This document shows positions 1,990 to 63,376 of a DNA stretch of 64,000 bases, in pieces. The notes below the pieces were generated by a model that worked only from the letters and a program-made list of their open reading frames with translations, was not told where the DNA came from and searched no databases. Position 1 is the stretch's first letter. Every line of letters starts with the position of its first letter. Origin of the DNA: Nitrosopumilaceae archaeon. Lineage in GTDB: Archaea > Thermoproteota > Nitrososphaeria > Nitrososphaerales > Nitrosopumilaceae. The stretch spans positions 1,568,001-1,632,000 of the forward strand of contig OZ242365.1 in assembly GCA_965208905.1 (NCBI GenBank), read 5' to 3'. Both the position numbers and the translations under genes were made by a program.

Positions 1990-2297
1990 TACAAACTTGT
2001 GAAAAAATAAACTCATATAAATACCACTTCTATACGCAACTTTCTGTCATAACTATTCCCGAATATCGCTACATTGATCAAAACACCTATAGCTCCCATC
2101 ATTAAGCCATCTAGTTATGGTAAAAACTGACAACCATACAGTACATCAAGTGTGGCGCAGACATGTCGTACAGTAGAGGTTATGCGTAATCGAAAAATCT
2201 GACTATTATAATTTTTAAAATTGTATATATATGTCGGATCATGTATATTGTATAGACTGTACAGTACATTATACCAAAGTATCAGGGAACCAAGCAT

Positions 2298-3603
2298 GTG
2301 ACCCGCACACTAACGTATCGTCTCAAGACTAGCACCCGGCTGACTGCATACTTTGATTCGATGGAGTCCGAGTCTCATGTATGGTTGAACGCCGGTCTGC
2401 AGGCCAGAAACATTGGGGCGACGTTCATTGACTGCGCAAAGGTCGTAACGCTTGTATCTACTATACCACAAGCATTCGCGTACGGGGCGATACAGGTCGG
2501 CAGAAAGATGCAGGGCAGCTGTACATCGTGCGGCTCACCTGAAGATGTGTGCAAGTGCAAGACACCAGACGTACAACACAAGAGGGTTGTACCGTATGGC
2601 AACCATACATATCCATTGTATAGCGCCAGGCCGCTGGGAAAAAAGTCCACCGGCAATGTGGTCTACTTTCCGTGTTGCAGTGTTCCATTCTACTTGCAGA
2701 AAGGCGAGCTGCCCAAAGACTCCCAGTCGTACAAGATAGTAGACGTTACAAACCACTCTGATAAGGAACGGCAGTTCGAGCTACATGTGACAGTTCGTGA
2801 GCATATACCGGACCGCGTATGTACCGGTGTGTTCGCCGGAGTAGACATGGGTGGGCACCATACCATGGTAGTTGCCAAGTCCGATGGAACCGCAAATGTA
2901 TTGTCATTACGCGAAAAGATCACACTACACAAGATACGCGGGCTGCACCAGCGCATGTCGCGCTGCACAGCAGGTTCGCGGAAATATGTCAATCTCAAAA
3001 AACAGTTAAACGCCATATACAGAAAGATGAAGAATCGTCAGCGCGACAGACTCAGAAAGTTCGCCAAAAAACTATTCGAGCAGTGTGACAAGATAATCTT
3101 TGAGGGGATGGGGCTTGATACCCTGACGCGCGCCGGCCCGGGACAGACAGAGAAGAACAAAAAGATGCGACAGTCAAAGTGCGGCGAGGCACGGAATTAC
3201 ATGGCGTATGGCTCCACACGACACAACGTCGAATATGCAGAGGTCAACCCCCGCAACACCTCAAAGATGTGCTTTATGTGCTGCAGATATAACACATTGC
3301 GCGAAGGCCGGAAATTAACCTGTCATGAACAGTCGTAAAACAATACACGCGGATGTAAACGCAGCATTCAATATACTATACACTTTTGCAATCGTCTGGT
3401 GGTCTGCGCGGATTCGCGCCGTGCAGAAACTCCAGCGCGAGGTCAGACTGGCCTCGAGAGGGCAGATACATCTTGACACGGGTATGACTCCCCCCGTGGT
3501 TGGAGCAACCCTTCCCGGTACGCGGAAGGCTCAATGTATACCTCTGGATGGTGGAAACACCAACAGCGTGTTATGTGTTTCAGATCGCTTGAAAGTGGTT
3601 TGA
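2298..3603 (+). pseudogene. tnpB: TnpB (IS200/IS605 RNA-guided nuclease) relic, frameshifted near 3325
   Basis: RuvC-I GVDMG, RuvC-II IIFEGM and Zn finger TSKMCFMC in ORF 2298-3338; RuvC-III HADVNAAFNIL in the next frame (3325-3603). Confidence 0.85.
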
Positions 3604-3668
3604 TTACGCATAAACTCTAGTATAACCCCGAGTGAAAGTGTGATGTCAACTGTGCCAACAAGGGAAAG

Positions 3669-12621: not shown

Positions 12622-14313
12622 ATGAATGAGAATAAACTCGGAATAATGGGAAAACCAGTAAATGACATGTATGGCGCATATATGGGGAAAGCGGTCGGTA
12701 CAGCAACTGACATTGACGGTACAGTTACATCGGTGGGCGTAGACTGTGGACTTCAAGGTCTGACAGAGATCCCCATCAGACATTTAGTAATACAGGAGGA
12801 ATCCATCGTATATGTACCTCAATGGAGACTCGATTCACAAAAAATATTGCGTAAAAAAACGTTTTTGATTAGACGACTTCAGGCATTAAATACAATCCTC
12901 TTAGAAAATGATGCGTTAAAGGAAGATTCTGAACCCGTACGTAAATTTTATGAGGAGAAATTAGATGCTATAAAAAATATCGAAGGTGAAGTGCTAGAAA
13001 CATTAGTAAATAGATTAGAAGAACTAGGACAGCAATCAGCCCTCGCAAAATCAATGCATTTTGATGCAACTATACAATACAAGAGTAGTGAAATAGAGGA
13101 GAGTGACTATAAGACCGCAAAGGCAGAAGTATCTACAATCCTAGAGAGAATAGACTATGAGATCGAAGAGATCAAAAGTATGCAGGACAGATTAGCCGAA
13201 CAATCCACCGCTGAATCTCAGGTTCGACACACAGAAGTATCAGAGGAAATAACAATTCAAGAAGATGAGAGTATTTCGTCTGAAATATCCACAGAACAAG
13301 TTTCTGTTGCAGAGGCACCGATTGTGGAAGCACCAGTTACAGAAGCACCGATTGTCGAGGCAGCTGTTGTAGAGGCACCGATTGAAGCACCGATTGTGGA
13401 AGCAGTTGCTGCGGAAGCACCAGCTGTTGAAGAGCCCGTTGTAGAGGCACCGATTGTGGAAGCAGTTGCTGCGGAAGCACCAGCTGTTGAAGAGACCGTT
13501 GTAGAGGCACCGATTGTGGAAGCGACTGTTGTGGAAGCACCAGTTACAGAAGCACCGATTGTCGAGGCAGCTGTTGTAGAGGCACCGATTGAAGCACCGA
13601 TTGTGGAAGCAGTTGCTGCGGAAGCACCAGCTGTTGAAGAGCCCGTTGTAGAGGCACCGATTGTGGAAGCAGTTGCTGCGGAAGCACCAGCTGTTGAAGA
13701 GACCGTTGTAGAGGCACCGATTGTGGAAGCGACTGTTGTGGAAGCACCAGTTACAGAAGCACCGATTGTCGAGGCAGCTGTTGTAGAGGCACCGATTGAA
13801 GCACCGATTGTGGAAGCAGTTGCTGCGGAAGCACCAGCTGTTGAAGAGCCCGTTGTAGAGGCACCGATTGTGGAAGCACCCATGACTGCAGTTATGGACG
13901 GCATAGCACCTGCACAGGACATACCAAAGTATGACATTCCAGAACCAGCACCGACATATGTTCCTAGTGACATACCGCCACCAGCACCCAAATATGACAT
14001 TCCAGAGCCGCCACAGGACATACCAAAATATAACATTCCAGAACCAGCACCGACATATGTTCCTAGTGACATACCGCCACCAGCACCCAAATATGACATT
14101 CCAGAGCCGCCACAGGACATACCAAAATATAACATTCCAGAACCAGCACCGACATATGTTCCTAGTGACATACCGCCACCAGCACCCAAATATGACATTC
14201 CAACACCACCTAGAACAGATGCTCCCAGTGACATACAGTCACCAGCACCAAAGTACAACATACCTGCTCCTTCCCCAAAGAACGATTGGTTGTCTCGAAT
14301 GACCTCACAATAG
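12622..14313 (+). CDS. cdvA: Cell division protein CdvA with expanded acidic/Pro-rich repeat linker
   Basis: N-terminal PRC-barrel-like GKPVNDMYG...GVDCG, coiled coil, C-terminal DWLSRM peptide. Confidence 0.8.
   Translation: MNENKLGIMGKPVNDMYGAYMGKAVGTATDIDGTVTSVGVDCGLQGLTEIPIRHLVIQEESIVYVPQWRLDSQKILRKKTFLIRRLQALNTILLENDALKEDSEPVRKFYEEKLDAIKNIEGEVLETLVNRLEELGQQSALAKSMHFDATIQYKSSEIEESDYKTAKAEVSTILERIDYEIEEIKSMQDRLAEQSTAESQVRHTEVSEEITIQEDESISSEISTEQVSVAEAPIVEAPVTEAPIVEAAVVEAPIEAPIVEAVAAEAPAVEEPVVEAPIVEAVAAEAPAVEETVVEAPIVEATVVEAPVTEAPIVEAAVVEAPIEAPIVEAVAAEAPAVEEPVVEAPIVEAVAAEAPAVEETVVEAPIVEATVVEAPVTEAPIVEAAVVEAPIEAPIVEAVAAEAPAVEEPVVEAPIVEAPMTAVMDGIAPAQDIPKYDIPEPAPTYVPSDIPPPAPKYDIPEPPQDIPKYNIPEPAPTYVPSDIPPPAPKYDIPEPPQDIPKYNIPEPAPTYVPSDIPPPAPKYDIPTPPRTDAPSDIQSPAPKYNIPAPSPKNDWLSRMTSQ
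13309..14210 (+). repeat. In-frame tandem repeats in cdvA: 207-bp unit (about 2.7 copies) then 99-bp unit (about 3 copies)
   Basis: Identical shadow ORFs at 13337 and 13544 (offset 207); caggacatacca at 13915, 14014 and 14113 (offset 99). Confidence 0.95.
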
Positions 14314-20024: not shown

Positions 20025-20450
20025 ATGCGACACAAAAACAGAAACACTATCTTCCCACACCTCACGTATGAGCGGACGCTAGGTCACCTGCACCGTCTTG
20101 AGGAGTACATCGAGGCGTACAGACTCCCCCCAGTTCTTAAAAGGCAGGTTCCAGTGGCAGTCTGTACTACGATCGAACAGTTTTGTCGGACAAAAAAGAA
20201 ATTCATGTATGGGGACGGCGAGCCCATGCCGCAAAGGCTCATACTCAATGTGCCGTTGGTGATGGATATGTTGGATTGGTCGGATAGTTGGTGTGTTGAC
20301 AACACGCGCCGCCATGAGGAGGTGTTCCGCAAACATGTTCAGGACATTGCCAATGACGATAGTTTCACCATCAGTATCAAGGATCTTAATACCTTGATTA
20401 ACGAAGCATGCGATATACGACAGCCCATGCTGGTAGAGTCCCTTGCAGCG
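20025..20450 (+). pseudogene. Hypothetical gene truncated by IS3
   Basis: ORF 19902-20591 reads into the IS3 end at 20451. Confidence 0.5.
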
Positions 20451-20491
20451 TGGAGTGGACCCCGTTCTTTAGAACCGATTTTCGCAACATT

Positions 20492-21349
20492 TTATTCACA
20501 CTTTTTACCTCCTGCATATATGCTATCCCTTGAGTTCTGCCAATATTGTTCGGCGAACTCAGAAGGTGCCAAGTACTGTATAGAAGAGTGAATTCTGTTA
20601 TGATTGTAATCTTCAAATGCAGCGAGTATTGTCTCTTTGGCTTCCTGAATGTTCGCAAACTCACGGGGCCAGACGTACTCCTTTTTGAGTGTCTTGTGGA
20701 AGGATTCGATATGTCCGTTTTGTTCGGGAGTGTTGATGTAGATGTATTCAAGAGTAATTCCCAACGCTGCCATTGATGATCTAAATTCCCGACTAGTGTA
20801 TTGAGTTCCATTATCGACTCTCAAAGTCAATCCCGGTAATGTTGGATTGGAGTCGGCTACGGCATTATTTACGGCCATGATAGCCTCGTGTCGTGTGGCA
20901 CGACTCTCCAATACAAATGCCAACCATTGCCTGGTAAAGACGTCGATTACATTAAAACAGTAACCCCATCCGTCTCTACCGCACCAGATGTATGACATGT
21001 CCGATTCCCGGAACTGATTTGGAGCCTTTGGTTTTGGAATCTTTTTATTGGTACGTATTATCTCACGCTTGGTACGTGATGGTTTACTCCATCCCAGTGC
21101 TTTGAATATACGTTTTATTGCCTTGCGGTTGATGGGACGATTCAACTCTCGTGAGGCTTGGGCAGCCATACGTCTTGTCCCATATGTCGGTCTTTTAGGT
21201 GCAATCTTTTGTACAATCTCTAGTACTTCGGGGTCCGATGACACGTTTCTGGGTGTAGGGGCATAATACCGTGCAGTTTTGGAGACTCCGCAAAGAGCGA
21301 GTGACCTATTGAGGTCCAACACGTCATGTATGATACGTGCGGCGTTCAT
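20492..21349 (-). CDS. IS3 orfB (integrase-like DDE)
   Basis: YGTRRM, SDMSYI, VDNGTQYTS, TPEQNGHIESFHKTLKKE. Confidence 0.92.
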   Translation of the reverse strand: MNAARIIHDVLDLNRSLALCGVSKTARYYAPTPRNVSSDPEVLEIVQKIAPKRPTYGTRRMAAQASRELNRPINRKAIKRIFKALGWSKPSRTKREIIRTNKKIPKPKAPNQFRESDMSYIWCGRDGWGYCFNVIDVFTRQWLAFVLESRATRHEAIMAVNNAVADSNPTLPGLTLRVDNGTQYTSREFRSSMAALGITLEYIYINTPEQNGHIESFHKTLKKEYVWPREFANIQEAKETILAAFEDYNHNRIHSSIQYLAPSEFAEQYWQNSRDSIYAGGKKCE

Positions 21350-21642
21350 TCTGCCTCGCCCTCCAGCGCTTTTTTTAAAGCATCATTAGCCACGGCATAC
21401 TCTCCGATGATTCTCTTAAGTGATGTAATCTCCTTTTTGTGCTTCTTGGCCTGTTTGGAAGCGTTAGAACCCTCAAACGAGCTGCGTCCGCCATCTGGAA
21501 ACTTTTCTTTCCAATCGTATACGGTTCGTGGGGCCAAGTTGTGTTCGCGGCATATCTCGGCCATACTGGTCTGTGGATTGAATGTCTGGAGTACTATGTG
21601 GATCTTTTCATCTGTACTCAACTTTGATTTTTTATTTGTCAT
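21346..21642 (-). CDS. IS3 orfA (HTH plus leucine zipper)
   Basis: EKIHIVL...AEICREHNL...VYDWK. Confidence 0.88.
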   Translation of the reverse strand: MTNKKSKLSTDEKIHIVLQTFNPQTSMAEICREHNLAPRTVYDWKEKFPDGGRSSFEGSNASKQAKKHKKEITSLKRIIGEYAVANDALKKALEGEAE

Positions 21643-21711
21643 ATGGTGTGTGCCCCCCAATTGCTAAAGTGTGCATCGACGATCGGTCTTATTCTAGCGG
21701 GGTCCGCGCCA

Positions 21712-23880: not shown

Positions 23881-23949
23881 GCCGGGCGGGGTTTTTGCAT
23901 TTCCTCGTAAAGTTCATCCGTGGCGGTGTAGCCCGGCATGCCCGCCACC
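23881..23949 (+). ncRNA. Candidate pseudoknot small RNA, copy A
   Basis: Begins exactly 28 nt after CCATATTGTACC-TTAAA; 5' GCCGGGC complements the loop GCCCGGC of hairpin GTGGCGG/CCGCCAC. Confidence 0.6.
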
Positions 23950-23980
23950 TGCTTAAACGTAATGGAACCGTTTTGTTGTA

Positions 23981-37559: not shown

Positions 37560-38982
37560 CTAACCTATCACCTTATAGTCTGCACGTTTTGACTCCCGCG
37601 CCTCAAATAGTGGAATTTTAATCGGTATGGCAAACGGCACGAACACGCTGGATATGATGGCCTCACCCTTGTCAAGTCCTGCGATATTCAGCATGTCTTT
37701 TGAGAGGTCTTGCGCAGCAGACTCTATTACGGCCTTGCGTTCCTGTATCATCTCGTTGCCGAGTATAATCTTCGTGCCCAGATTCGCCAGTATGTCCCGC
37801 GGTATCATGCTTGTAAGCTGGGTGATTGCCACCAGACCGACCTTGAACTTGCGTCCCTCACGCGCAATCGTACCGAACACATTGCCCTCACCCATGTCGT
37901 TTAGCACGCGCGGCGCCTCCTCAAGTATTATGGATGCTACCGGCAACTCGTGCAGTCTGCCTTCCCGCTGTGCCATACGGTAATGATACAGTATGCTATA
38001 CGCGAGCACAGAACCTATGAGCAACTCCTCCTTGTCGTCCAGCGTGGATGTATCTATCACAACCACCTCTCCCGCCGCAACAGCACCAACAATATCATGT
38101 ACGGTATTGCCGCCGTCCAGCGTAAATGTCTCCCCCCTTCCTATATTCAGGGCGCGCCCAATTTTTCTGCGCAGTACGAGTCGTGTCCTAAGCACGCGCG
38201 CATCCAAGCCCTCATCATCACTCTCATCGAATAATCTGGCAATCCAGTCTCTGCCGTGTCTGCTGTTCAACTCCCACACCATGTCTGACTGCGCATCAGA
38301 CAGTTCGACAACCCCCCCTTAGCTGTGAGGGATGTATGTGCTGCGTGCTTATCGCGAGGCTCTTCCCGTACTGTTTGAGATTCCTGCCGGCCTTTGGATG
38401 GCTATCCAGCGTATGATACTCGTTATGCGCATCCAGTACCAGCATGCCGACATCATTTGAGTCCAAAAGATTCCACAGTATGTTCTTTACCAGGTTTGAC
38501 TTGCCGCGGCCGGTCGTCGCGGGTATCAACACATGGTGCGAGAACACATCCTGAGCGTTGAGTTTCACATCAACCCCAAGCACCTTACTGCCGCTCCGTA
38601 TCATGCCCAGCGATAGATTGTTGCGCGGGTCGCCGGACAGAAACCTAAAGTCCTCATCTGACACATCATGTATCTCGCCAAGAAACTTGGGTAGTTTCTT
38701 TGTCTTGTGCACCTCGCCTCCCCGCACATCACACAGCGCCTTTACGGTACAGATGATATACTCTGTGTCTTCCCGCTCTATGAAGTCATCCATGTGCTGT
38801 ATAGACCCGGCCATCATGCCCCACAGGTTCATGTTGTTCTTGGGTGCGTACTGTATATCATATACCTGCAGTATGTTGTGTTTTGTCTTTAGCAGGTCGC
38901 CTATCTCTATATCATAGTCCTCGGCCTGCCGTATTATGATCTCATCAAACGCCCCACCCATTACGCGTCCCACAACAGTCAT
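37560..38982 (-). pseudogene. herA: HerA helicase, frameshifted at a G7 run (38312-38318)
   Basis: HAS-barrel N-terminus, ATTGRGKS, LDAHNEY; removing one G gives LRGVVELSDAQSDMVWE joining ILEEA, IAREGRKF, ITQ. Confidence 0.9.
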
Positions 38983-39977
38983 CTGTTCACCTCGTTTAGT
39001 TTTTCATGCATCTCCATGTCGGCTATGTCGCGCTGTATGTCTTTGGAGAGGTTGTGCCGGATCTTCCACAATACAATCCTGCCCTCGTCCTTTCTTATCT
39101 TCGCCATATGGTCGGCGCGTATCAAACCCGTGGGATACCCGTACATGCGCACATCCTTTGAGTTGGCGCGTATGGTATTCACAATATCATGTATGTCTTG
39201 TGTGTCCAATGTATCATATGCCGCCTGATCTATATCCAGCAGGTATGGCCTGCTTTTTTCATGCAACATAACACCGAGTGTGGCAGCCGCATCGCGCACG
39301 TGCCCAATCCTGACAAACGCAGGTCCCCGTGAATGCATACTGCGCAGGTGTGATATCAGGGGCCTGCCGTTGTACATCGCGTTTGTGGTCTTTGCCAGGG
39401 CGCATACGACAACACCCTTGCGGTGTGCTGCATGGCATAATTCCGACATTAACTGACTCTCCTTCCCACCCCATGCGTTCAATGCCCCGTCCATGACCAG
39501 TATGTTTAGTCTGTCTTTACACTCCATCTCCTGAATGATTTTTGTTGCATATGTCCACTCCGAATATGAGCGCGCCATTGAATCATGTCTGTGCGTCTGC
39601 GGGGCGTGTATCAGGGCAGATGCATCGTTCAGTATACGCTCCGATACCAGATACCCGCGCTCGTCCCGGTGTATTGGATATATTGCATGTGTGATGGGAT
39701 CATACCGTATAAGCGAATAGAACGACACGCGCGGATACTCCCGTATACGGCTCATTCCATTGTACGTGGCGCCGAACAGCCGGTTTATCTCCAGGTGGCA
39801 GTACGGCGTGTGCAGTATGCTCATGTTGCCGCCATCCACAAATGTACAATCCAGTGTGGTGTTTGACTGGATTGGCTCAAAACCATCGTCTATCCTTACA
39901 CTACCGCCAATTCCATCAAACGGTATGCGGTTTATCTCCTGTATGACGGCCTGCCGTATAACAGATACTGTACTCAT
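38979..39977 (-). CDS. nurA: NurA nuclease
   Basis: FVDGG, VMDGAL, LAKT, GYPTGLIRADHMAKI; overlaps the herA start. Confidence 0.88.
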   Translation of the reverse strand: MSTVSVIRQAVIQEINRIPFDGIGGSVRIDDGFEPIQSNTTLDCTFVDGGNMSILHTPYCHLEINRLFGATYNGMSRIREYPRVSFYSLIRYDPITHAIYPIHRDERGYLVSERILNDASALIHAPQTHRHDSMARSYSEWTYATKIIQEMECKDRLNILVMDGALNAWGGKESQLMSELCHAAHRKGVVVCALAKTTNAMYNGRPLISHLRSMHSRGPAFVRIGHVRDAAATLGVMLHEKSRPYLLDIDQAAYDTLDTQDIHDIVNTIRANSKDVRMYGYPTGLIRADHMAKIRKDEGRIVLWKIRHNLSKDIQRDIADMEMHEKLNEVNR

Positions 39978-40028
39978 ACCCTCCTGATGCACGATACAAT
40001 ATAAGGCGCAATATGGCATTTTCCACAC

Positions 40029-40045
40029 CCATATAGCGCCTTAAA
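40029..40045 (+). promoter_or_regulatory. Class I promoter, type example (back-to-back with CCATATTGCGCCTTATA for nurA)
   Basis: CCATATAGCGCCTTAAA, TTAAA 28 nt before ATG 40069; identical at 60112 and near-identical at 48104. Confidence 0.8.
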
Positions 40046-40068
40046 TGGAACGACACTTTACACTGCCA

Positions 40069-41043
40069 ATGGAAGATATACAACTTGACAGTCTGGAGGG
40101 CGTCGGACCGGTAACCGCACGCAAACTGGCTGAAGCAGGCATACACAACATCATGGATTTGGTAGTGCGGGGGCCCATTGAGATCTCCAACATCACAAGC
40201 ATGGAGAAGGAGGCTGCCGAAAAGCTGGTCACCAAGGCCAGAAAACATCTATCCGAAAGCGGGCAACTGGCAAAAGAGTTTGTCAGTGCGGCAGAAATCT
40301 ACAAACGTCGACAAGAGATAGGAAAGATATCCACCGGAACCGACTGCCTCGACACGCTGTTTGGCGGAGGCGTTGAGACGCAGGCCCTTACCGAGGTATA
40401 TGGTGAGTTTGGCTGCGGTAAGACCCAATTCTGCCACACCCTATGCGTCATGGTACAAAAGAGCATACAGGACGGCGGCCTTGGGGGCGGCGTGCTGTAT
40501 ATGGACTCTGAGAATACCTTCAGGCCTGAAAGAATAGCCTCTATTGCCAAGGCCAATGGCATGGACCCACAGCGCATACTGGAGAACATCATAGTGGCCC
40601 GTGCATACAACAGTGCCCATCAGATACTCATACTTGAGGAGGCCGGTGCGATAATACGTGAGAATAACATCAAGCTACTGGTGGCAGATTCGGCAGTCGG
40701 TCTGTTCAGATCCGAGTATCTGGGACGCGGCACACTGTCCGAGAGGCAGCAGAGATTAAACCACTTTGTGCACCTGTTGGTGCGCATAGCCGAGACGTAC
40801 AATGTTGCCGCGGTGGCCACCAACCAAGTGATGTCATCCCCGGATTCGTTCTTTGGGGATCCGACAAAGCCCATTGGAGGCAATGTGGTGGCTCATACCA
40901 GCACGTACAGGGTTTACTTTAAAAAGTCCGGCAAAAAGAGGATAGCCCGCATGGTGGACAGTCCGCACCATCCCGAGGAGGAGACGATGTTCGCCATAAG
41001 CGAGGCGGGCATAATCGACCCCGTAGAGCCAAAAACCAAGTAA
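40069..41043 (+). CDS. radA: RadA recombinase
   Basis: N-terminal HhH LEGVGP, GEFGCGKTQ, ENTFRPER, PIGGNVVAH. Confidence 0.96.
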   Translation: MEDIQLDSLEGVGPVTARKLAEAGIHNIMDLVVRGPIEISNITSMEKEAAEKLVTKARKHLSESGQLAKEFVSAAEIYKRRQEIGKISTGTDCLDTLFGGGVETQALTEVYGEFGCGKTQFCHTLCVMVQKSIQDGGLGGGVLYMDSENTFRPERIASIAKANGMDPQRILENIIVARAYNSAHQILILEEAGAIIRENNIKLLVADSAVGLFRSEYLGRGTLSERQQRLNHFVHLLVRIAETYNVAAVATNQVMSSPDSFFGDPTKPIGGNVVAHTSTYRVYFKKSGKKRIARMVDSPHHPEEETMFAISEAGIIDPVEPKTK

Positions 41044-41060
41044 TTTTTTTGTTTTATTTG

Positions 41061-41170
41061 ACCGGGGATCACCCCCCGGCAAGGTTTGCCGTGTAGGCAA
41101 ACCAGCAACATACAGCAGGGGCGCCGGACACTGACCCACGTGTGTGCTAGGACGTAAAGTCTCGCCCGGC
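41061..41170 (-). ncRNA. Candidate small RNA, copy D (pseudoknot frame plus two 3' hairpins)
   Basis: GCCGGGCG exactly 28 nt after CCACATAGCGCC-TTATA; pairs with TGTCCGGC; then GGTTTGCC/GGCAAACC-TT-GCCGGGG/CCCCGGT. Confidence 0.6.
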
Positions 41171-41591
41171 CCTATGGATGCTGCGTGGCACAATATAAGG
41201 CGCTATGTGGCTTTGGGTCGAAATTATTCAGTCGTATCTACAAGAGCATTCGGCGTGGTCAGGGGTTGACTGTAGCCGTTCCACGGAACCGTCCGTCATT
41301 GTTTTGGCGATGTCATGTGTATGGTGAAGTTATGGACATCCTACCACGCCTGCCTTTCGGCCAACCGAGGCTGTCCAGTGTACAGAAGTCATGTGTTTGT
41401 TGATGTTACGAAATAGTACGAGTACTACTGCTAGATGTTGTGACATGCATCGAGTGACAGTCCTCGGGCTTATTGTATGCCGTCTGTGTCGATGATGTGG
41501 CTTCATGCCAAGGTAGCAGATCGGTTACGTTTAAGGGAGTATATGGCTTTGGACTGATGGTGACTATAGTCCCACAACATCATAAAATTTA

Positions 41592-41673
41592 ACCGGGGGC
41601 TTTGGGCCCCCGGCAAGGTCTGGGGGACTACCGCCCCCGACCTAGGCGCATACGCCGGCACCTACCATAAGAC
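41592..41673 (-). ncRNA. Candidate small RNA, copy F (three hairpins, no variable loop)
   Basis: Follows CCACATAGTCC-TTTAAA; TAGGTGC/GCGCCTA, GGTCGGGGG/CCCCCAGACC, TT, GCCGGGGGC/GCCCCCGGT. Confidence 0.55.
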
Positions 41674-41704
41674 GGTATGATACATATCGATTGCATTTAA
41701 AGGA

Positions 41705-43141
41705 CTATGTGGCTTTTGTACCCGAGCCGCCACCGGCCTTGCCCATGGCTGCGCCGGCAGCCCCGGCAGGCTTTGCACCAGCACCCATGCTACCCATGCC
41801 AAGTCTTCCCGCGCCCGCGCCAACTGCACCCTGCGCAGTCTGTATCATGCTGGTGAACGAGCCGGTAACCTGCTGTATAATCGTAGCAAATGCGCCCAGC
41901 GATACAATGGGTATGGCTATTGCCATCGACATTATGCCCGTGCCGAACATCCATACAACCAGTACGTCATTCCCATAGTCGGACAACAGCAGCCCGACCA
42001 TCAGCTCTGATGATATGCTGAACAGTATGGCCATCTCTATTGGGTATAGTATGGCGGCCGCCAGTGATGCGGGGCCGTATGTTGTCAGCACCTGCTTTAT
42101 CCTTCCGCCGCCGTGCATATGCTCCCAGGGCATCAGCATAAGCAGAAGGTATGCCGGCACAAACACGAGCATTGTGGCTGTTGCCACATCCACTGCGACG
42201 TTTGATATAATCATGCCCGTACCGGTCATTATTACGGCCTGCGCCTTTATCATGCCGAACAGTATGTTCACGATAAACTCGCCAAAGCCCCTGTACATCC
42301 AGTCGGCCGCATTGTCCCAGTGTGAGGTAATGGTCTCCCAGAAGGAGCCGGATACATCAACGGGTGGCGGTATGGCCTTTGTATTGCCGCCCCACTGCTC
42401 CAGCATGTATCGGACGCGCAGTTCCGGCTGGCACATCGCATCCAGTTTACCGGTCTTGTCCTGCATGAGCAAATACCGTGTTGCATGATAGTGTTTCTGC
42501 AGGGCCTCGTTGTCCGTATCCAGCACGCCGTTTGTATACCACTGCGGGGGGCACGGATACTCCCTGTTGCCGGAGTATGCGTTGTTTAGTATCTTTGTCG
42601 ATACCCACTCCGAACCGTCTATCGAATAATCCCATATGGGCGGTAGTATGAACAGTATCACAATGCACAGTACGCACCTTGATGGCAGGCTTGACATCCA
42701 CACGTATGCCCAGTGTGACCCGCGCGGGTCTGCGCCAAACCCCACCGTACCATAGTTTTCCCCCCGCCGCATCATGGTTTTTTTGGGCCTCATCATCGGA
42801 TGTACGCCGTCTGTGACCTCCTGTGTATGTTCGCCCTCCATTACATATGATGCCCTGTGTCCGAAACGGCCGGTTATCAGCCAGGCTATCGCGCCCAGGC
42901 CTATTATACCATACAGGACGGCCTCGCGCTGCTGCTTGAATACATGAAACAGCATGTTGCCGTTCTCCCCCGTGTGATCCAGACTGTACTCGAAGTCCGG
43001 CATGTCTATCAGTATATCTACCAGGTTTTCGACCAGAAAGTCCTTGATGATACCGGATATCGTGATTATGGTTACCACAAGCGCCAGTATGATTGCCAGG
43101 TCAAGCACGATCTGCACGACAAAGAGGATTGGCAGCGCCAT
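41705..43141 (-). CDS. Polytopic membrane protein, VirB6/TrbL-like
   Basis: Several TM segments around a large loop; Gly/Ala-rich C-tail; class II motif upstream. Confidence 0.6.
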   Translation of the reverse strand: MALPILFVVQIVLDLAIILALVVTIITISGIIKDFLVENLVDILIDMPDFEYSLDHTGENGNMLFHVFKQQREAVLYGIIGLGAIAWLITGRFGHRASYVMEGEHTQEVTDGVHPMMRPKKTMMRRGENYGTVGFGADPRGSHWAYVWMSSLPSRCVLCIVILFILPPIWDYSIDGSEWVSTKILNNAYSGNREYPCPPQWYTNGVLDTDNEALQKHYHATRYLLMQDKTGKLDAMCQPELRVRYMLEQWGGNTKAIPPPVDVSGSFWETITSHWDNAADWMYRGFGEFIVNILFGMIKAQAVIMTGTGMIISNVAVDVATATMLVFVPAYLLLMLMPWEHMHGGGRIKQVLTTYGPASLAAAILYPIEMAILFSISSELMVGLLLSDYGNDVLVVWMFGTGIMSMAIAIPIVSLGAFATIIQQVTGSFTSMIQTAQGAVGAGAGRLGMGSMGAGAKPAGAAGAAMGKAGGGSGTKAT

Positions 43142-44847: not shown

Positions 44848-45588
44848 TCAGGTAGCATCTTTGATAGCCTTGGCCAGGTCCTGTCTGCGCAGCCTGACCG
44901 AGACGGTCGAGACTGCGGCCGCATCGGCAATCTCCTGCTGCGTTACCCCACAGTTGTGTGCAGCACATACGGTATACAGGGCCGCCGCAGCCAAGGTAGC
45001 GGGGTCTTTGCCTGACATCTGCGACATCACCGACTGCAATAGTTCAACCGCCTTGCGCAGTATTGTCTCCGGCACCTTACAGGATGTGGCAATACTACTG
45101 ATGAATGCTGCCGGGTCCGGGGGCGGCACGGACAGCGACAGGCCATTGACCAGAACGCCATAAATGCGCTTTACCTGCCCGGGTTTTACGGCCGCCACCT
45201 CGCAGATCGACTTTGTAGTACGGGGTACGCCTTCCAGCCTGCATGCCAGTGTAACCAGCGCGGCTGCAAAAGCTCCACGATGCCAGCCGCGGTTCAGCCC
45301 GTGCGCGTTGGCATTTGTGTTTAAGGAAACTGCCCTCCTATATGCGATATCGGGCACGCCACACTTTGTACATATTGATTCAATTACGCCTATCATTGCC
45401 CAGTTGGGACGGCTTATCTTCCTGTCCAGTTTGTGCAACCTCCACTTCCCCTCGAACGTCTTGGTACGGCCCATCTCCGACCATATCTGGGTGAGTGTTG
45501 GCGCGGCCCTGCGAACCTCCCCGCACTTCGTACACACCAGTTCACCATCATCCTCAAGTATACGACCTCCGCATCGACATGTCAGCAC
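44848..45588 (-). CDS. tfb: Divergent transcription factor B
   Basis: Zn ribbon CRC...ELVCTKCG, two cyclin folds (AAALVTLACRLEGVPRT; GKDPATLAAAALY), HTH TQQEIADAAAVSTVSVR; GTG overlaps the upstream stop. Confidence 0.9.
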   Translation of the reverse strand: MLTCRCGGRILEDDGELVCTKCGEVRRAAPTLTQIWSEMGRTKTFEGKWRLHKLDRKISRPNWAMIGVIESICTKCGVPDIAYRRAVSLNTNANAHGLNRGWHRGAFAAALVTLACRLEGVPRTTKSICEVAAVKPGQVKRIYGVLVNGLSLSVPPPDPAAFISSIATSCKVPETILRKAVELLQSVMSQMSGKDPATLAAAALYTVCAAHNCGVTQQEIADAAAVSTVSVRLRRQDLAKAIKDAT

Positions 45589-47219
45589 CACACATTCCAA
45601 CCCCCGTCGAACTTGGTAAGGCCGCAATCCGCCCGGCTCACCCCACCGTGCCGTATCATGGCCGCGTTGACCGGCTCTGCCATGCCGCACCATATCACCC
45701 CCGTCCTTGATACGGGGGGAGGAATCGCCAGGCCGGTATCCCATGCGGTCGGCCCATCAGCGCTTATCGTGTATCGCATGGCATCACCCACATGCTGTAT
45801 TGTAGCAGTCACCACATCGTGATACGTGGATGATACAAGCGGCTCCAAAACCATGCCGTCCGCCATATATGTGACATTTCCGGTCATCGCCGGCATCCTT
45901 AATGTGATTGCCGCCGGCTCTCCCGTTGCGTCTACATGTATTGTGGAGCCCTCCCGTGTAATATCAACATCAAGTACCGACTCGTATGTGGTCGCATAGG
46001 GTATTACGAGCGGCGCATATGATGAGTGCATAACATCAAAGTCTACAGTTACAATGCTGCCAGGCGGACATATTGCGGCAGCCATATTGTCCGGGTCGCC
46101 AGACACCAGACTCATGCGTACGGCTCCATGGAAGCCGTTCCCATATACTATGCCGGTCGCGCCATCCCATGCGCGAACCACCATGTCCTGTATGCAATCA
46201 CCAGTACACATGTCATTGGGTATGGAGTGTATTGTTATCATATCAGATGTATTATGCGGTATTGTTGCCGACAATACGCCGCCTACCACATCATATGTGG
46301 CGTCCAACATTGTATTCCCCTGCCAGAATGTAAAAGTCCCGCCGAATGCCGGCATGACTATATGCAGCATGCCTCCACCATCGGATACGCCGCGTATTGC
46401 GGCCGTATTGTATGATCTTGATATGCTCTGAACCTGATATGTATCCGATGACCATGACACGCCCGACAGCGTTCCTGCGCGCATCACATTATCCGGGCCC
46501 GATACATCAACGCTTACCCCGTCCTGTATGCCGTACAGCATATCCATGTATCTCTTCTCAGAGTAGAACCAAAAAGAGTTCTGTATGTGTGGGTCGTATC
46601 GGTCGGCCACATACACGCCTGCCAACGGTATTGGCCTGTCCATATCTACCAAAAACCTGGCACTACCCTCGCCCACATACTGTATTATGTATAACCCGTC
46701 CACACTCTCCATGACGGCCACATCTCCCCATACCTCCCCCACACGTACGACCCCGGGCCCGTCAAGAAAGTCGTTTATGCCAAACAATACGTCATTTAGC
46801 GAGTCTGCAACCGTTCTTGAGTAGTCTACAAAGGGCGTATACATCATGTCATTATACAACAGCACGTATGTTCTTGTCGGTATGCCCGGAGGGGCCGAAT
46901 CATCAAGCAGGGGTATGTCGTGTATAGGGTCGCCCGTAATCTCAAAGGCCGTATCCGGTGAGAATACCACGTCTGGGGGCATTTCCGTTGGCAGGCCGGC
47001 CAGTATGGTGTGGTCGGCTCGTACCACCCAGTACGGAGTCTGATTATGCAACACCGGCGCGATGAACTCCAGCTCAGCATAATAGCAGTATTGCCGCAGT
47101 GTATCGCATATCGTGTATGCGTGGGTTTCGGGCGCGGCGTCCATGCCCGGCTCCCAGTATGCGCCATGTGCAGCAAGGGGCATGCATATGCCAATTACCA
47201 CCAACAGTACATACTGCAT
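45582..47219 (-). CDS. Secreted acidic hypothetical protein
   Basis: Signal peptide MQYVLLVVIGICMPLAAHG; class II motif upstream. Confidence 0.75.
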   Translation of the reverse strand: MQYVLLVVIGICMPLAAHGAYWEPGMDAAPETHAYTICDTLRQYCYYAELEFIAPVLHNQTPYWVVRADHTILAGLPTEMPPDVVFSPDTAFEITGDPIHDIPLLDDSAPPGIPTRTYVLLYNDMMYTPFVDYSRTVADSLNDVLFGINDFLDGPGVVRVGEVWGDVAVMESVDGLYIIQYVGEGSARFLVDMDRPIPLAGVYVADRYDPHIQNSFWFYSEKRYMDMLYGIQDGVSVDVSGPDNVMRAGTLSGVSWSSDTYQVQSISRSYNTAAIRGVSDGGGMLHIVMPAFGGTFTFWQGNTMLDATYDVVGGVLSATIPHNTSDMITIHSIPNDMCTGDCIQDMVVRAWDGATGIVYGNGFHGAVRMSLVSGDPDNMAAAICPPGSIVTVDFDVMHSSYAPLVIPYATTYESVLDVDITREGSTIHVDATGEPAAITLRMPAMTGNVTYMADGMVLEPLVSSTYHDVVTATIQHVGDAMRYTISADGPTAWDTGLAIPPPVSRTGVIWCGMAEPVNAAMIRHGGVSRADCGLTKFDGGWNVWC

Positions 47220-47320: not shown

Positions 47321-47366
47321 TGGTTATACAAAGCATGGTTGCATTTAAGGCGCCATATGGCCAGGC

Positions 47367-48062: not shown

Positions 48063-48143
48063 ATATAGTATACGTGGTGAGGATATTTAAGGCGTCCCTC
48101 ATGCCATATAGCGCCTTATAACATACCGTGTAGTTCGACGGGC

Positions 48144-51746: not shown

Positions 51747-52100
51747 TTATTCATTACGTTTAAGCGGCGATATGACATCATGCTCAAAGTGCAGCAACAT
51801 CCTGTTCATGTACAGGGAGATATGCACCCTGTCGCCCTTCCGTATCATACCCGACAGTTTTTTTGGGAGTGATATCACCCAGTAATATCTATACATTATG
51901 CCGCATAACTCCCGTATCTTTACTATGCGTATTGGTATGCCGTCCACATTGTCTATGCGGAATGTATCAGAATTATGTATGTTGATGTATGCATCCTCAC
52001 CGTTTTGTTCAATGTATTTTTTGGCCTGTTTGAACGGCAATCGCAGCCGGTAATATGGTGTGCCATCTATATACTGCATCTGCACACGCCTCACCTTCAT
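51747..52100 (-). CDS. Putative AbrB-like (swapped-hairpin) DNA-binding protein
   Basis: YYRLRLP...YWVISLPKKL...IRKGDRVHI. Confidence 0.5.
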   Translation of the reverse strand: MKVRRVQMQYIDGTPYYRLRLPFKQAKKYIEQNGEDAYINIHNSDTFRIDNVDGIPIRIVKIRELCGIMYRYYWVISLPKKLSGMIRKGDRVHISLYMNRMLLHFEHDVISPLKRNE

Positions 52101-52122
52101 ACCGTATAATGCATTTGGGGTT

Positions 52123-52146
52123 CGCAAAAAGGTTAACATTTTTGCG
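52123..52146. promoter_or_regulatory. 24-bp palindrome forming back-to-back class II-like promoters
   Basis: CGCAAAAA-G-GTTAAC-A-TTTTTGCG; outer CGs lie 22-24 nt from ATG 52100 (-) and ATG 52168 (+). Confidence 0.65.
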
Positions 52147-52167
52147 TTTGTGCGCGCATTATATGTC

Positions 52168-53163
52168 ATGTGGTGCAGCATACGACTGGTCGAACACCAA
52201 CAAGAGAAGCGAAAGGAGTTGGTGCAGTCGATACTCTCCTATGTGAGACTTGCGGCATTCCTCACGTACAGGGATGTAGAGGGCTTCGTACGGTATTCAA
52301 TCTGGTTTGAGGACCAGTATCTGAGTTATGTGCTGGGGCTGCATGCGGCCAAGCCAGATCTGGGAGGTGTTGAGATTACACCGACTGATACGCCATCCAT
52401 ATTGGAGAACTGCATGATTGCCCAGGAGATGGAGATGCGTGGGTACGGGGCTGCCGAACTACCGCTTGATACGGGCATACGCTCGGCGACCGCCGCACTG
52501 GGTACGCAGATTACCGACACAGCATACAGGCTGCTGATATGCCACAGGGTTGAACGGTCTGATTTGATCGACGGGTACGTAAACAGTGGAGGCAGGCCGA
52601 CATCAATGTACAGGAAGGTGGCGGGCATGGCTGCGCGCGAGGCCATGGGATTCTTTGACAGCTCGCCCAGGCCTGCGGCTGAAAAACCCACCATCGATGC
52701 CAAAAAACCGCCATACACGCATACGCGCATCATACTGGGGGCGAATACCGAAGAGCACATAACAATACTTCGTGACTCATTTCCCGCCGGCAGTCTGAAG
52801 AGACTGAACCGCATACCGCCCGTACAAGTGGCCGCGCAGGCATGTATAATACCAAAGGTGCGGACAAGCATGATTCACTTTCCCGTGTTCAATGATGCCG
52901 AACTGGAGAGTCTGGAGATCCTGCCGACCAATGTGACCGAAGTTCCCATGGAGTACGGACGCGCCATCACATCCACAACGCAGCCCCCCACCGTATTTAT
53001 GGATTTGATAAACGACATAATACATACATCCATGCCCAGGCGCGTCCCGCTATATCTGGACATATCCGAAGAGCCCGACGACGCATCAATGCAGCCTGAG
53101 TTTCCAGTACAAATCATAGGCGGTGAACCCGAGTTTCCCATCAGTATGATTCCACACGCCTGA
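52168..53163 (+). CDS. Hypothetical protein
   Basis: Long ORF; start set by the palindrome spacing. Confidence 0.7.
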   Translation: MWCSIRLVEHQQEKRKELVQSILSYVRLAAFLTYRDVEGFVRYSIWFEDQYLSYVLGLHAAKPDLGGVEITPTDTPSILENCMIAQEMEMRGYGAAELPLDTGIRSATAALGTQITDTAYRLLICHRVERSDLIDGYVNSGGRPTSMYRKVAGMAAREAMGFFDSSPRPAAEKPTIDAKKPPYTHTRIILGANTEEHITILRDSFPAGSLKRLNRIPPVQVAAQACIIPKVRTSMIHFPVFNDAELESLEILPTNVTEVPMEYGRAITSTTQPPTVFMDLINDIIHTSMPRRVPLYLDISEEPDDASMQPEFPVQIIGGEPEFPISMIPHA

Positions 53164-53196
53164 CGTGTGGCAGTGTGTCAACAAGCTCCGCCCGGC
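53152..53196 (-). ncRNA. Candidate small RNA, copy E (short)
   Basis: GCCGGGCGGAG 28 nt after CCACAATGCGTC-TTTAA; hairpin CCACAC-GTCAGGC-GTGTGG. Confidence 0.4.
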
Positions 53197-60072: not shown

Positions 60073-60151
60073 AAAATCTATCATTAGGGTTTCACAGATT
60101 CTCCTCCCAACCCATATAGCGCCTTAAATTGTATCGTACGGTTAACCTATG

Positions 60152-62857: not shown

Positions 62858-63376
62858 ATGAAAGGTACTATACGGGTGCAAAACATCATGGCACTCGCCA
62901 GCACGGGCCAAAAACTGGATCTAAAACATATAGCCGGACATATACCTGATGCCGTATATACAGATGACTTTCCAGGCATACGGTACCGCATACACGAGTT
63001 GAACTCCAGTGTGTTGTTGTTCCGCTCGGGCAACATAGTCTGCGCGGGGGCCAAGTCCGAAGAACATGTACACAGGGTATATGAGCATATATGCGATATA
63101 CTACGCAGACTCGGCTATGACACACAACAACCAAACATCACAATAACCAACATCGTGGCAACTGCAAACATCGGCCGCGGGCTGGACATGCAGTATGTCT
63201 CCGACCTGCTGCCCGGAGCAAGGTATGAGCCGGAGATGTATGCAGGCGTTACGTATCATGCCAAAAACAGGGTAGTCGCGCGCATACATGCATCAGGCAA
63301 GATAATCTTTGTCGGCGCCCGCTCCATGCAGGACATCGTAGATGCATACAACAACATACGCTCACTGCTGGCATAA
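62858..63376 (+). CDS. tbp: Divergent TATA-binding protein
   Basis: Two TBP repeats: QNIMA...FPG...LLFRSG...GAKS and TNIVA...YEPE.YAG...IHASGK...GARS. Confidence 0.92.
   Translation: MKGTIRVQNIMALASTGQKLDLKHIAGHIPDAVYTDDFPGIRYRIHELNSSVLLFRSGNIVCAGAKSEEHVHRVYEHICDILRRLGYDTQQPNITITNIVATANIGRGLDMQYVSDLLPGARYEPEMYAGVTYHAKNRVVARIHASGKIIFVGARSMQDIVDAYNNIRSLLA

Follow-up and report, generated by a model that had tools for sequence, protein, structure and literature searches.

Two neighboring double-hairpin modules, here designated D and F, lie on the minus strand of a 660-bp spacer (41044-41704) between the radA gene and a convergent open reading frame (ORF) for a 478-residue putative membrane protein in a Nitrosopumilaceae archaeon. 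We favor the reading, with a probability of about 0.45, that they arose by duplication and form the 3′ ends of short minus-strand transcripts, the spacer being a rearranging part of a conjugative-type island. The genome is one contig of 2,214,775 bases (45.6% G+C), and the window analyzed is a stretch of it of 64,000 nucleotides (nt) (G000:C1:1568001-1632000); the 19 sequencing runs with this stretch are sponge and marine metagenomes. Both modules have the same orientation and are 534 nt apart.

The double hairpins are real and non-random. The sequences of D and F quoted in an earlier sequence-only reading of this DNA are exactly present on the minus strand, and the frame it described for both, GGT..ACC-TT-GCCGGGG..CCCCGGT, is indeed common to them and continues in each with YAAAT. 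Each module folds as two adjacent stem-loops (first and second hairpin, HP1 and HP2), with minimum free energies of -28.6 (D) and -38.2 kcal/mol (F) and z-scores of -3.95 and -3.50, and none of 200 shuffled sequences folded as well (0/200). The same reading had proposed that the stems covary while the loops differ, and covariation is indeed seen in HP1 but not in HP2. When the HP1 stems are aligned from the base, eight pairs are comparable: three at the base and one farther in are shared by D and F, the other four differ at both positions, and pairing is retained in all eight; HP1 of F has one extra pair and a bulged A relative to D. The seven shared pairs of HP2 are identical in the two copies, F having two extra pairs, so this stem is simply conserved and provides no covariation.

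Each module is also followed by a potential termination signal, as the minus strand of 40950-41760 has only two runs of four or more T, one after each module (Table 1). In F, a nine-pair stem and then TAAATTTTAT form a terminator-like site. According to the passages of PMC8716108 that deal with transcript ends, archaeal transcripts end at U-tracts of four to seven uridines, and such terminators do not need hairpins, in agreement with the statement of the sequence-only reading that archaeal termination is usually oligo-T based and that paired conserved hairpins call for another explanation. On the plus strand, the T7 and T4 runs of radA itself (41044-41055) precede module D and the module is consequently not needed to end radA. 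Several features favor the minus strand as the one that acts as RNA: the outermost pair of HP2 is G.U in both copies on this strand and A.C on the plus strand; the helix closing the 5′ stem-loop of D (GCCGGGCG/UGUCCGGC) contains two G.U pairs and forms on the minus strand only, the plus-strand centroid being without it; and folding of the full units is 3-5 kcal/mol more favorable for the minus than for the plus strand (-52.0 vs. -46.6 and -46.7 vs. -43.8). As the z-scores are similar on both strands, we regard this evidence as a lean toward minus-strand RNA and not as proof.

Each unit is preceded by a copy of an island-wide promoter motif (ccATATaGCGCCTTAAA). The spacer has three copies of a 22-34-nt direct repeat on the minus strand (R1, R2, and R3) and, these being copies of the promoter motif, three minus-strand units are predicted, namely F, E, and D. 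A promoter matrix derived from 14 island promoters, none of the five R copies being included, reaches 18 bits or more at only 19 of ~4.4 million positions, R1, R2, and R3 among them. Exact matches to GCGCCTTAWA number 19 genome-wide, and the stretch from 1.557 to 1.777 Mb contains 15 of these; most have cCATAT before and an ATG 20-27 nt after (radA, nurA, the peptidase gene, and others), and for the wider motif an ATG lies 20-27 nt downstream in 19 of 29 matches. The GCGCC part is degraded in R1 and R2. That D and F carry copies of a motif found in front of many island genes makes independent transcripts plausible. An extended form of the motif, ccATATaGCGCCTTA[AT]A, stands 20-27 nt before the ATG of many leaderless ORFs and may be an element-specific promoter read by element-borne factors (the island's own TFIIB and TBP). 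A fifth R copy, at genome position 2134744, resembles R2 and the start of E.

Unit F has, as the sequence-only reading had noted, its own promoter-like site and a hairpin containing CCGGCGTA, and it lacks the GCCGGGCG start, which places it outside the leader family described below. It holds only an 8-codon frame. The 478-residue ORF ends within R1, its last codons (K-A-T-stop) being the first 12 nt of this promoter copy, so that module F, which starts 63 nt behind the stop of this ORF, also lies within the 3′ tail of that gene, and it is possible that its hairpins serve only the mRNA of this neighbor. The body of unit E (41216-41508) is not distinguished from shuffled sequence as a structured RNA (z -0.09 and -0.89).

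From the sequence, we infer the transcription of the units, the positions of their RNA ends and a role for the hairpins in stabilization and/or termination. Transcription would start at the island-type promoters, R1 for F and R3 for D, and read-through from the 478-residue ORF and from unit E would also reach the modules. Each transcript would then pass through two neighboring GC-rich stem-loops and reach, just behind them, one of the only two oligo-T runs of the strand, where the U-tract would end transcription, as established for archaea, and the hairpin pair would fix and protect the 3′ end of the RNA. The pair may also block the strong island promoters from antisense reading into radA (D) or the next unit (F). 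Both modules would descend from one ancestor through local duplication in a spacer that is still rearranging.

A number of points weigh against this reading. Since archaeal U-tract terminators need no hairpin, and Term-seq of four archaeal species, in the relevant passages of PMC8716108, found no over-representation of a preceding hairpin at U-tract ends, termination alone leaves the hairpins unexplained. In D, the first run of four or more T is 26 nt downstream and an A-rich stretch comes after HP2. Of the 181 perfect GC-rich hairpins outside the array of clustered regularly interspaced short palindromic repeats (CRISPR), only five, that of F included, have a T4 run within 12 nt, so that the modules are placed like 3′-end elements yet are of a type uncommon in this genome. 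The modules fold about equally well as plus-strand RNA (z -5.32 and -3.09) or as DNA. The identity of the ACC-TT-GCCGGGG junction and the HP2 stem, with the interior of HP1 replaced, would suit sequence-specific recognition by a protein better than a plain stabilizer. Lastly, only two copies exist, and the structural conservation and covariation thus amount to one pairwise comparison.

The modules have no relatives in the collections we searched. A covariance model built from D and F (itself labeled R1, and distinct from the promoter copy R1) matched only the two modules in the genome, and a count over both strands of the 2,214,775 bases gives exactly three occurrences of the 12-mer ACCTTGCCGGGG, two in the modules and one, without hairpin context, at genome position 118398. 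The model found no module in 30 relatives, the single match (E 0.09, in G007) lying behind a cyclophilin gene in GC-rich DNA and being taken as chance, and none in 19 loci encoding homologs of the 478-residue ORF or in four other loci; nor was a module seen in the 400 nt downstream of the fetched homolog loci, four of which reach their ends earlier. By similarity, the whole spacer matched only its own genome when compared with 40 relatives, and had no match among plasmids and phages. The pattern ACCTTGCCGGGG-N3-12-CCCCGGT was present at 16 loci in viral contigs, all in contigs of 56-69% G+C and none with an upstream hairpin or tail, and 10 of these are one conserved stretch; we rejected them as relatives. 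The frame pattern with NAAAT matched two genome contigs (Aliiroseovarius and an Acidobacteriaceae metagenome-assembled genome), which we also took as chance, and no metagenome contig. Rfam 15 gave no match at gathering score in the 64-kb window, and for 40900-41850 only four matches of 12.5-17.1 bits (E 1.3-8.7) against cut-offs of 45-100. By these searches, the double-hairpin feature is confined to one species-level lineage.

Comparison at the strain level, with contigs of four other runs, covered D in X5, X6, and X8 and F in X5, X6, and X7 (X7 having no cover at 41052-41139). In one contig of X8, position 41535 is followed directly by 41702, so that precisely the 166 nt from R2 to R1, the F unit, are missing; other joints are 41243-41667 in X8 and 41370-41517 in X7. 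The differences listed include, in HP1 of F in three runs, G41633A plus a one-base deletion (C) at 41634 and, in D, single-base insertions or deletions at 41066, 41072, and 41095, with 117 further differences beyond these. A relic of the ORF tail and R at genome 1636806-1636913 (88.9% identical) has a small leaderless CxxC..CxxC frame directly behind it and no F unit. The absence of F from one population and from this relic indicates that F is dispensable, and on these joints F is probably a later insertion or duplicate.

The 5′ half of unit D has relatives elsewhere in the island. At least four island units start with GCCGGGCGGGG ~23 nt after an island promoter and have a leader that closes with GGCCCGGCAyaCCCGCCACC 40-45 nt after the start, the conserved length being ~70 nt; these leaders are probably what the sequence-only reading called copies A and B. 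Behind each of the four clear leaders is an ORF with its ATG at +98 to +159 and a second TATA-like box ~24 nt before this ATG. The ORFs encode a 73-residue Cys-rich protein, a 545-residue protein with a hydrophobic N-terminus, a 263-residue protein, and a 691-residue T2SSE-type ATPase (5.6e-25). A further copy (L045 1501-1570) precedes the ATPase ortholog in a congeneric genome and is the only convincing match among 300 other genomes of the family; a second match, in G425, is GC-rich and looks like chance. The family has no match in Rfam. As structured RNAs the leaders do not stand out from shuffled sequences (z -0.36 to +0.44), and none of the 13 pairs in their consensus fold is compensatory, one pair being G.U in place of G-C in two members, D included. 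Residues 373-557 of the ATPase encoded behind the fourth leader weakly resemble an intein splicing domain (E 3.7e-5), short of the Pfam cut-off.

D aligns with these leaders from the promoter through GCCGGGCG to GUCCGGC, having an island promoter, an GCCGGGCG start ~23 nt after the box and the closing GyCCGGC 40-45 nt later. By this alignment, the 5′ half of D is a diverged copy of the island leader. D has no ORF of the leader type behind it, and has the hairpin pair and the end of radA instead; nor is there an ATG at the leaderless position. D may thus be an orphan leader copy joined to a hairpin pair, a proposal we hold jointly with the 3′-end reading and at the same tentative level.

Several alternatives treat D and F as RNAs with a function of their own. 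The sequence-only reading saw in D a guide-scaffold fusion and in F a free tracr-like scaffold (tracr, trans-activating CRISPR RNA) for an RNA-guided protein, which we consider highly improbable even though the units are compact and structured with their own promoters and the genome has both a CRISPR array and 75 TnpB zinc-ribbon (PF07282) matches. The variable 5′ part of D proved to be a diverged copy of the leader found before four protein-coding ORFs, and F has no anti-repeat and no nearby effector: the longest complementarity of the 36-nt CRISPR repeat to window 41000-41760 is 7 nt (E 1.0), no Cas or TnpB effector gene lies within 5 kb, the nearest PF07282 match is 38 kb away (window 3186-3332), the ends of the TnpB element of the window (region 2170-3622) look nothing like the modules, and Rfam gives nothing at gathering score. 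The only CRISPR array found, at genome 981217-990447, has 128 repeats (ATTTCCGAGACATTTTTGTCTCGGCCCCATTGAAGC) with spacers of ~36 nt and is ~620 kb from the modules; no spacer matches the island at E <= 0.01. F pairs with copies A and B no better than its own shuffles do (z -1.1 to +0.6 against shuffles for F with the four leader RNAs), and among the pairings of F and D with leaders A, B, C, and the fourth, seven of eight are no better than shuffles, the pairing of D with the fourth leader being borderline (z -1.94, 5/200 shuffles as good). A broader and rather unlikely alternative is that D and F are small regulatory RNAs whose double stem-loop, with fixed junction and YAAAU tail, would bind a putative island RNA-binding protein, in the manner of FinP/FinO on F-like plasmids, and that D could act as a decoy for whatever binds the leader of secretion and pilus-type operons. 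This would fit the exact conservation of the 12-nt junction, HP2 stem and tail against an HP1 interior and two loops that vary, the island-type promoter on each unit, the lack of any leaderless ATG in D and of more than 8 codons in F, and the promoter, start and closing helix that D shares with the leaders of four ORFs, one for a T2SSE-type ATPase. It would also fit an island of conjugative type (TFIIB, VirB6-like lead, secretion ATPase), as parts of PMC6563490 describe. However, the genome has no ProQ/FinO-domain gene (PF04352, 0 matches), no gene is antisense to D or F, leader pairing is at shuffle level in all but that one comparison, F is absent from one related population, and there are only two copies, with relatives found nowhere else. 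We consider its most specific form quite improbable, in which D and F would be small RNAs from island promoters, the junction a handle for an island RNA-binding protein and D a stabilized decoy setting the levels of the secretion-ATPase and membrane-protein genes. The single-stranded linker of D was also tried as an antisense to the 478-residue ORF (inverted repeats I2 and I4) and rejected, as its sites did not rank in the top 15 duplexes when 30,662 island windows were compared.

The modules might instead act as DNA, as a recombination, replication-origin or transfer-origin site or a protein roadblock, with the promoter-like repeats as iterons. The hairpins are strand-symmetric, with an equally good fold on the plus strand, the spacer combines three 22-34-nt direct repeats with two direct double palindromes and recombines between its repeats in related populations, and it adjoins a conjugation-type membrane gene in an island with MCM, Hjc, and RadA. 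Nevertheless, we find this fairly improbable: the supposed iterons are promoter-motif copies at a fixed ATG distance before many ORFs, the observed deletion is between promoter repeats and not between hairpins, no integrase, relaxase or Y1 transposase gene is adjacent (and the genome has no match to the Y1 transposase, PF01797), no AT-rich unwinding stretch lies between the modules, and the G.U pairs favor one RNA strand. It is also unlikely, if less so, that the units are neutral relics of duplications and deletions, an old hairpin pair having been copied once and now being functionless. There are two copies only, in one lineage, F is dispensable in one population, the GCGCC part is degraded in R1 and R2, and the island has other relics (the ORF tail and R at 1636806-1636913, and nurA/radA fragments at 1776235-1777407). 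Against this, neutral decay should break pairs, whereas all eight comparable HP1 pairs are intact, four of them with both bases replaced, and the frame is 100% identical, and both modules are kept with only small changes in loops or stem ends wherever they are covered (D in X5, X6, and X8; F in X5, X6, and X7).

Known systems resemble the modules in part. FinP of F-like plasmids is a small antisense RNA of two stem-loops with a short spacer and a 3′ tail, and has a FinO/ProQ-type chaperone. Both module folds have this layout of two stem-loops with spacer and tail; unlike FinP, they have no gene on the opposite strand of 41061-41673, no match to PF04352 in the genome and an archaeal host. The tracrRNAs and the omega RNAs of TnpB/IscB are, as predicted for the modules, short RNAs of several stem-loops, and this genome is rich in TnpB and has a CRISPR array, but there is no anti-repeat and neither effector nor array is adjacent, as would be expected for a tracrRNA, and the modules are not at the 3′ end of a tnpB or iscB gene inside an insertion sequence (IS), as omega RNAs are. 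They differ from the end hairpins of IS200/IS605 and from repetitive extragenic palindromic (REP) elements in the lack of a Y1 transposase and in having 2 copies only. Bacterial intrinsic terminators and 3′ stabilizing stem-loops, given in passages of PMC8716108 as a 7-8-bp hairpin and a U run, likewise end a unit with a GC-rich stem (here of 7-9 pairs), and F has its U4 run 5 nt after the stem; unlike these, the modules have an archaeal host, tandem hairpins with a fixed junction, no adjacent U run in D, and are of a type rare here (5/181). With the archaeal U-tract terminators that act with aCPSF1, as the same passages describe them (PMC8716108), they share the position of each module before one of two runs of four or more T, and differ in the conserved hairpin pair that precedes the run. 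The island has TFIIB, a VirB6-like lead and a FlaI/T2SSE-type ATPase in common with the integrative-conjugative elements of Thaumarchaeota as covered in PMC6563490, the main text of which contains none of the words "hairpin," "promoter," or "non-coding" and does not describe the RNA units or the promoter motif.

The hairpins are outside the known archaeal termination signal, and a conserved pair before U-tracts would be a small case of 3′-end structure in an archaeal mobile element. Their surroundings matter more than the hairpins themselves: one extended promoter motif that is reused, an own TFIIB and TBP, and one leader before several secretion-type genes. If D or F regulate these genes, they would offer a first handle on RNA-level control of archaeal conjugative elements, and the decoy, if true, would be an archaeal counterpart of plasmid fertility-inhibition RNAs.

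Table 1. Features of the spacer, the leader family and the island; positions are those of the window unless marked as genome.
Feature	Position	Strand	Description or basis
Module D	41061-41103	-	two hairpins; fold; covariance model 60.3 bits
D HP1	41103-41083	-	GGTTTGCC-TACAC-GGCAAACC
D linker TT	41082-41081	-	between HP1 and HP2
D HP2	41080-41061	-	GCCGGGG-GGTGAT-CCCCGGT
Module F	41592-41642	-	two hairpins; fold; covariance model 76.5 bits
F HP1	41642-41617	-	GGTCGGGGG-CGGTAGT-CCCCC-A-GACC (bulged A)
F linker TT	41616-41615	-	between HP1 and HP2
F HP2	41614-41592	-	GCCGGGGGC-CCAAA-GCCCCCGGT
T4 run	41584-41587	-	5 nt after F HP2
T5 run	41031-41035	-	26 nt after D HP2; antisense, within last codons of radA
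Promoter copy R1 (unit F)	41683-41716	-	TCCTTTAAAT; 20.6 bits, 18th best of 4.4 million positions
Promoter copy R2 (unit E)	41517-41550	-	18.2 bits
Promoter copy R3 (unit D)	41181-41214	-	GCGCCTTATA; exact GCGCCTTAWA site; TATA-like box 41198-41192; 28.1 bits
Predicted unit F	~41673-41584	-	behind R1
F 5′ hairpin	41643-41664	-	UAGGUGC-CGGCGUAU-GCGCCUA; fold of 41586-41672; contains CCGGCGTA
Predicted unit E	41506 onward	-	behind R2; 58-codon leaderless ORF 41506-41330, ATG 23 nt after box
Predicted unit D	~41170 onward	-	behind R3
D 5′ stem-loop	41122-41170	-	starts GCCGGGCG ~23 nt after TATA-like box; fold and alignment with leaders A and B
Leader family member	23881-23950	+	before ORF
Leader family member	47320-47250	-	before ORF
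Leader family member	genome 1635745	-	before ORF
Leader family member	genome 1755473	-	before ORF
T2SSE-type ATPase behind fourth leader	genome 1753300-1755375 (= L052 101-2176)	-	691 aa
Extended promoter motif sites	40009-40045, 47340-47366, 48105-48143, 60113-60142, others		motif before ORFs
radA	40045-41043	+	convergent neighbor; Pfam Rad51 3.6e-89
478-aa membrane ORF	41705-43141	-	upstream of F, convergent with radA
TFIIB of island	44848-45744	-	encoded in ~220 kb around window
TBP of island	62858-63376	+	encoded in ~220 kb around window

The genes near the spacer encode RadA, the VirB6/TraJ-like membrane protein, Fic, and TFIIB. To the left of radA are Rad50-like, Mre11-like, HerA-like, and NurA-like ORFs, and the right side has Fic, TFIIB, a trypsin-like peptidase, a PLD nuclease, Hjc, an MmeI-type restriction-modification enzyme, MCM, and TBP. 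The neighborhood looks like a large mobile island of conjugative type, VirB6, FlaI-type ATPases and TFIIB being conserved components of thaumarchaeal integrative-conjugative elements in the account given by parts of PMC6563490. The 478-residue ORF has no match in Pfam or PHROG searches, and its likeness to VirB6/TraJ/TrbL is a lead from a language-model search (atlas feature score 0.90 to TraJ/TrbL clusters). Distant homologs of it are encoded in 17 of 401 genomes of the order, its own genome counted, with 22-29% identity over the longer matches, and no relative was found among metagenome contigs. The 65- and 119-residue minus-strand ORFs over the end of radA we judged to be antisense artifacts.

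Paralogs or relics of core recombination genes are carried by the island. A second radA copy at genome 2193860-2194832 is 83.5% identical to window 40045-41043 and has AT-rich surroundings, and the divergent nurA-radA promoter region is repeated, with gene fragments, between window 39668-40231 and genome 1776235-1777407 (92-94% identity). The HerA-like gene at 37560-38982 (minus strand) comprises two adjacent ORFs of 228 and 240 residues, only the upstream one matching DUF87/HerA, which suggests that it is split or frameshifted. An orphan unit with a promoter at 53196-53110 (minus strand) starts with GCCGGGCGGAG and is convergent with ORF 52060-53163, whose 3′ end it enters. Positions 53152-53170 form a perfect hairpin (CCACACG/CGTGTGG) in this unit, the layout of which, directed at the 3′ end of a neighbor, resembles that of D. 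One CRISPR spacer matches genome position 109872 over 18 nt. The genome also has many further repeated IS-like segments, one of which, at window 20450-21711, has near-identical copies at other sites, and among the self-matches of the window is a tandem repetition at 13306-14264, with offsets of ~207 nt, within ORF 12622-14313.

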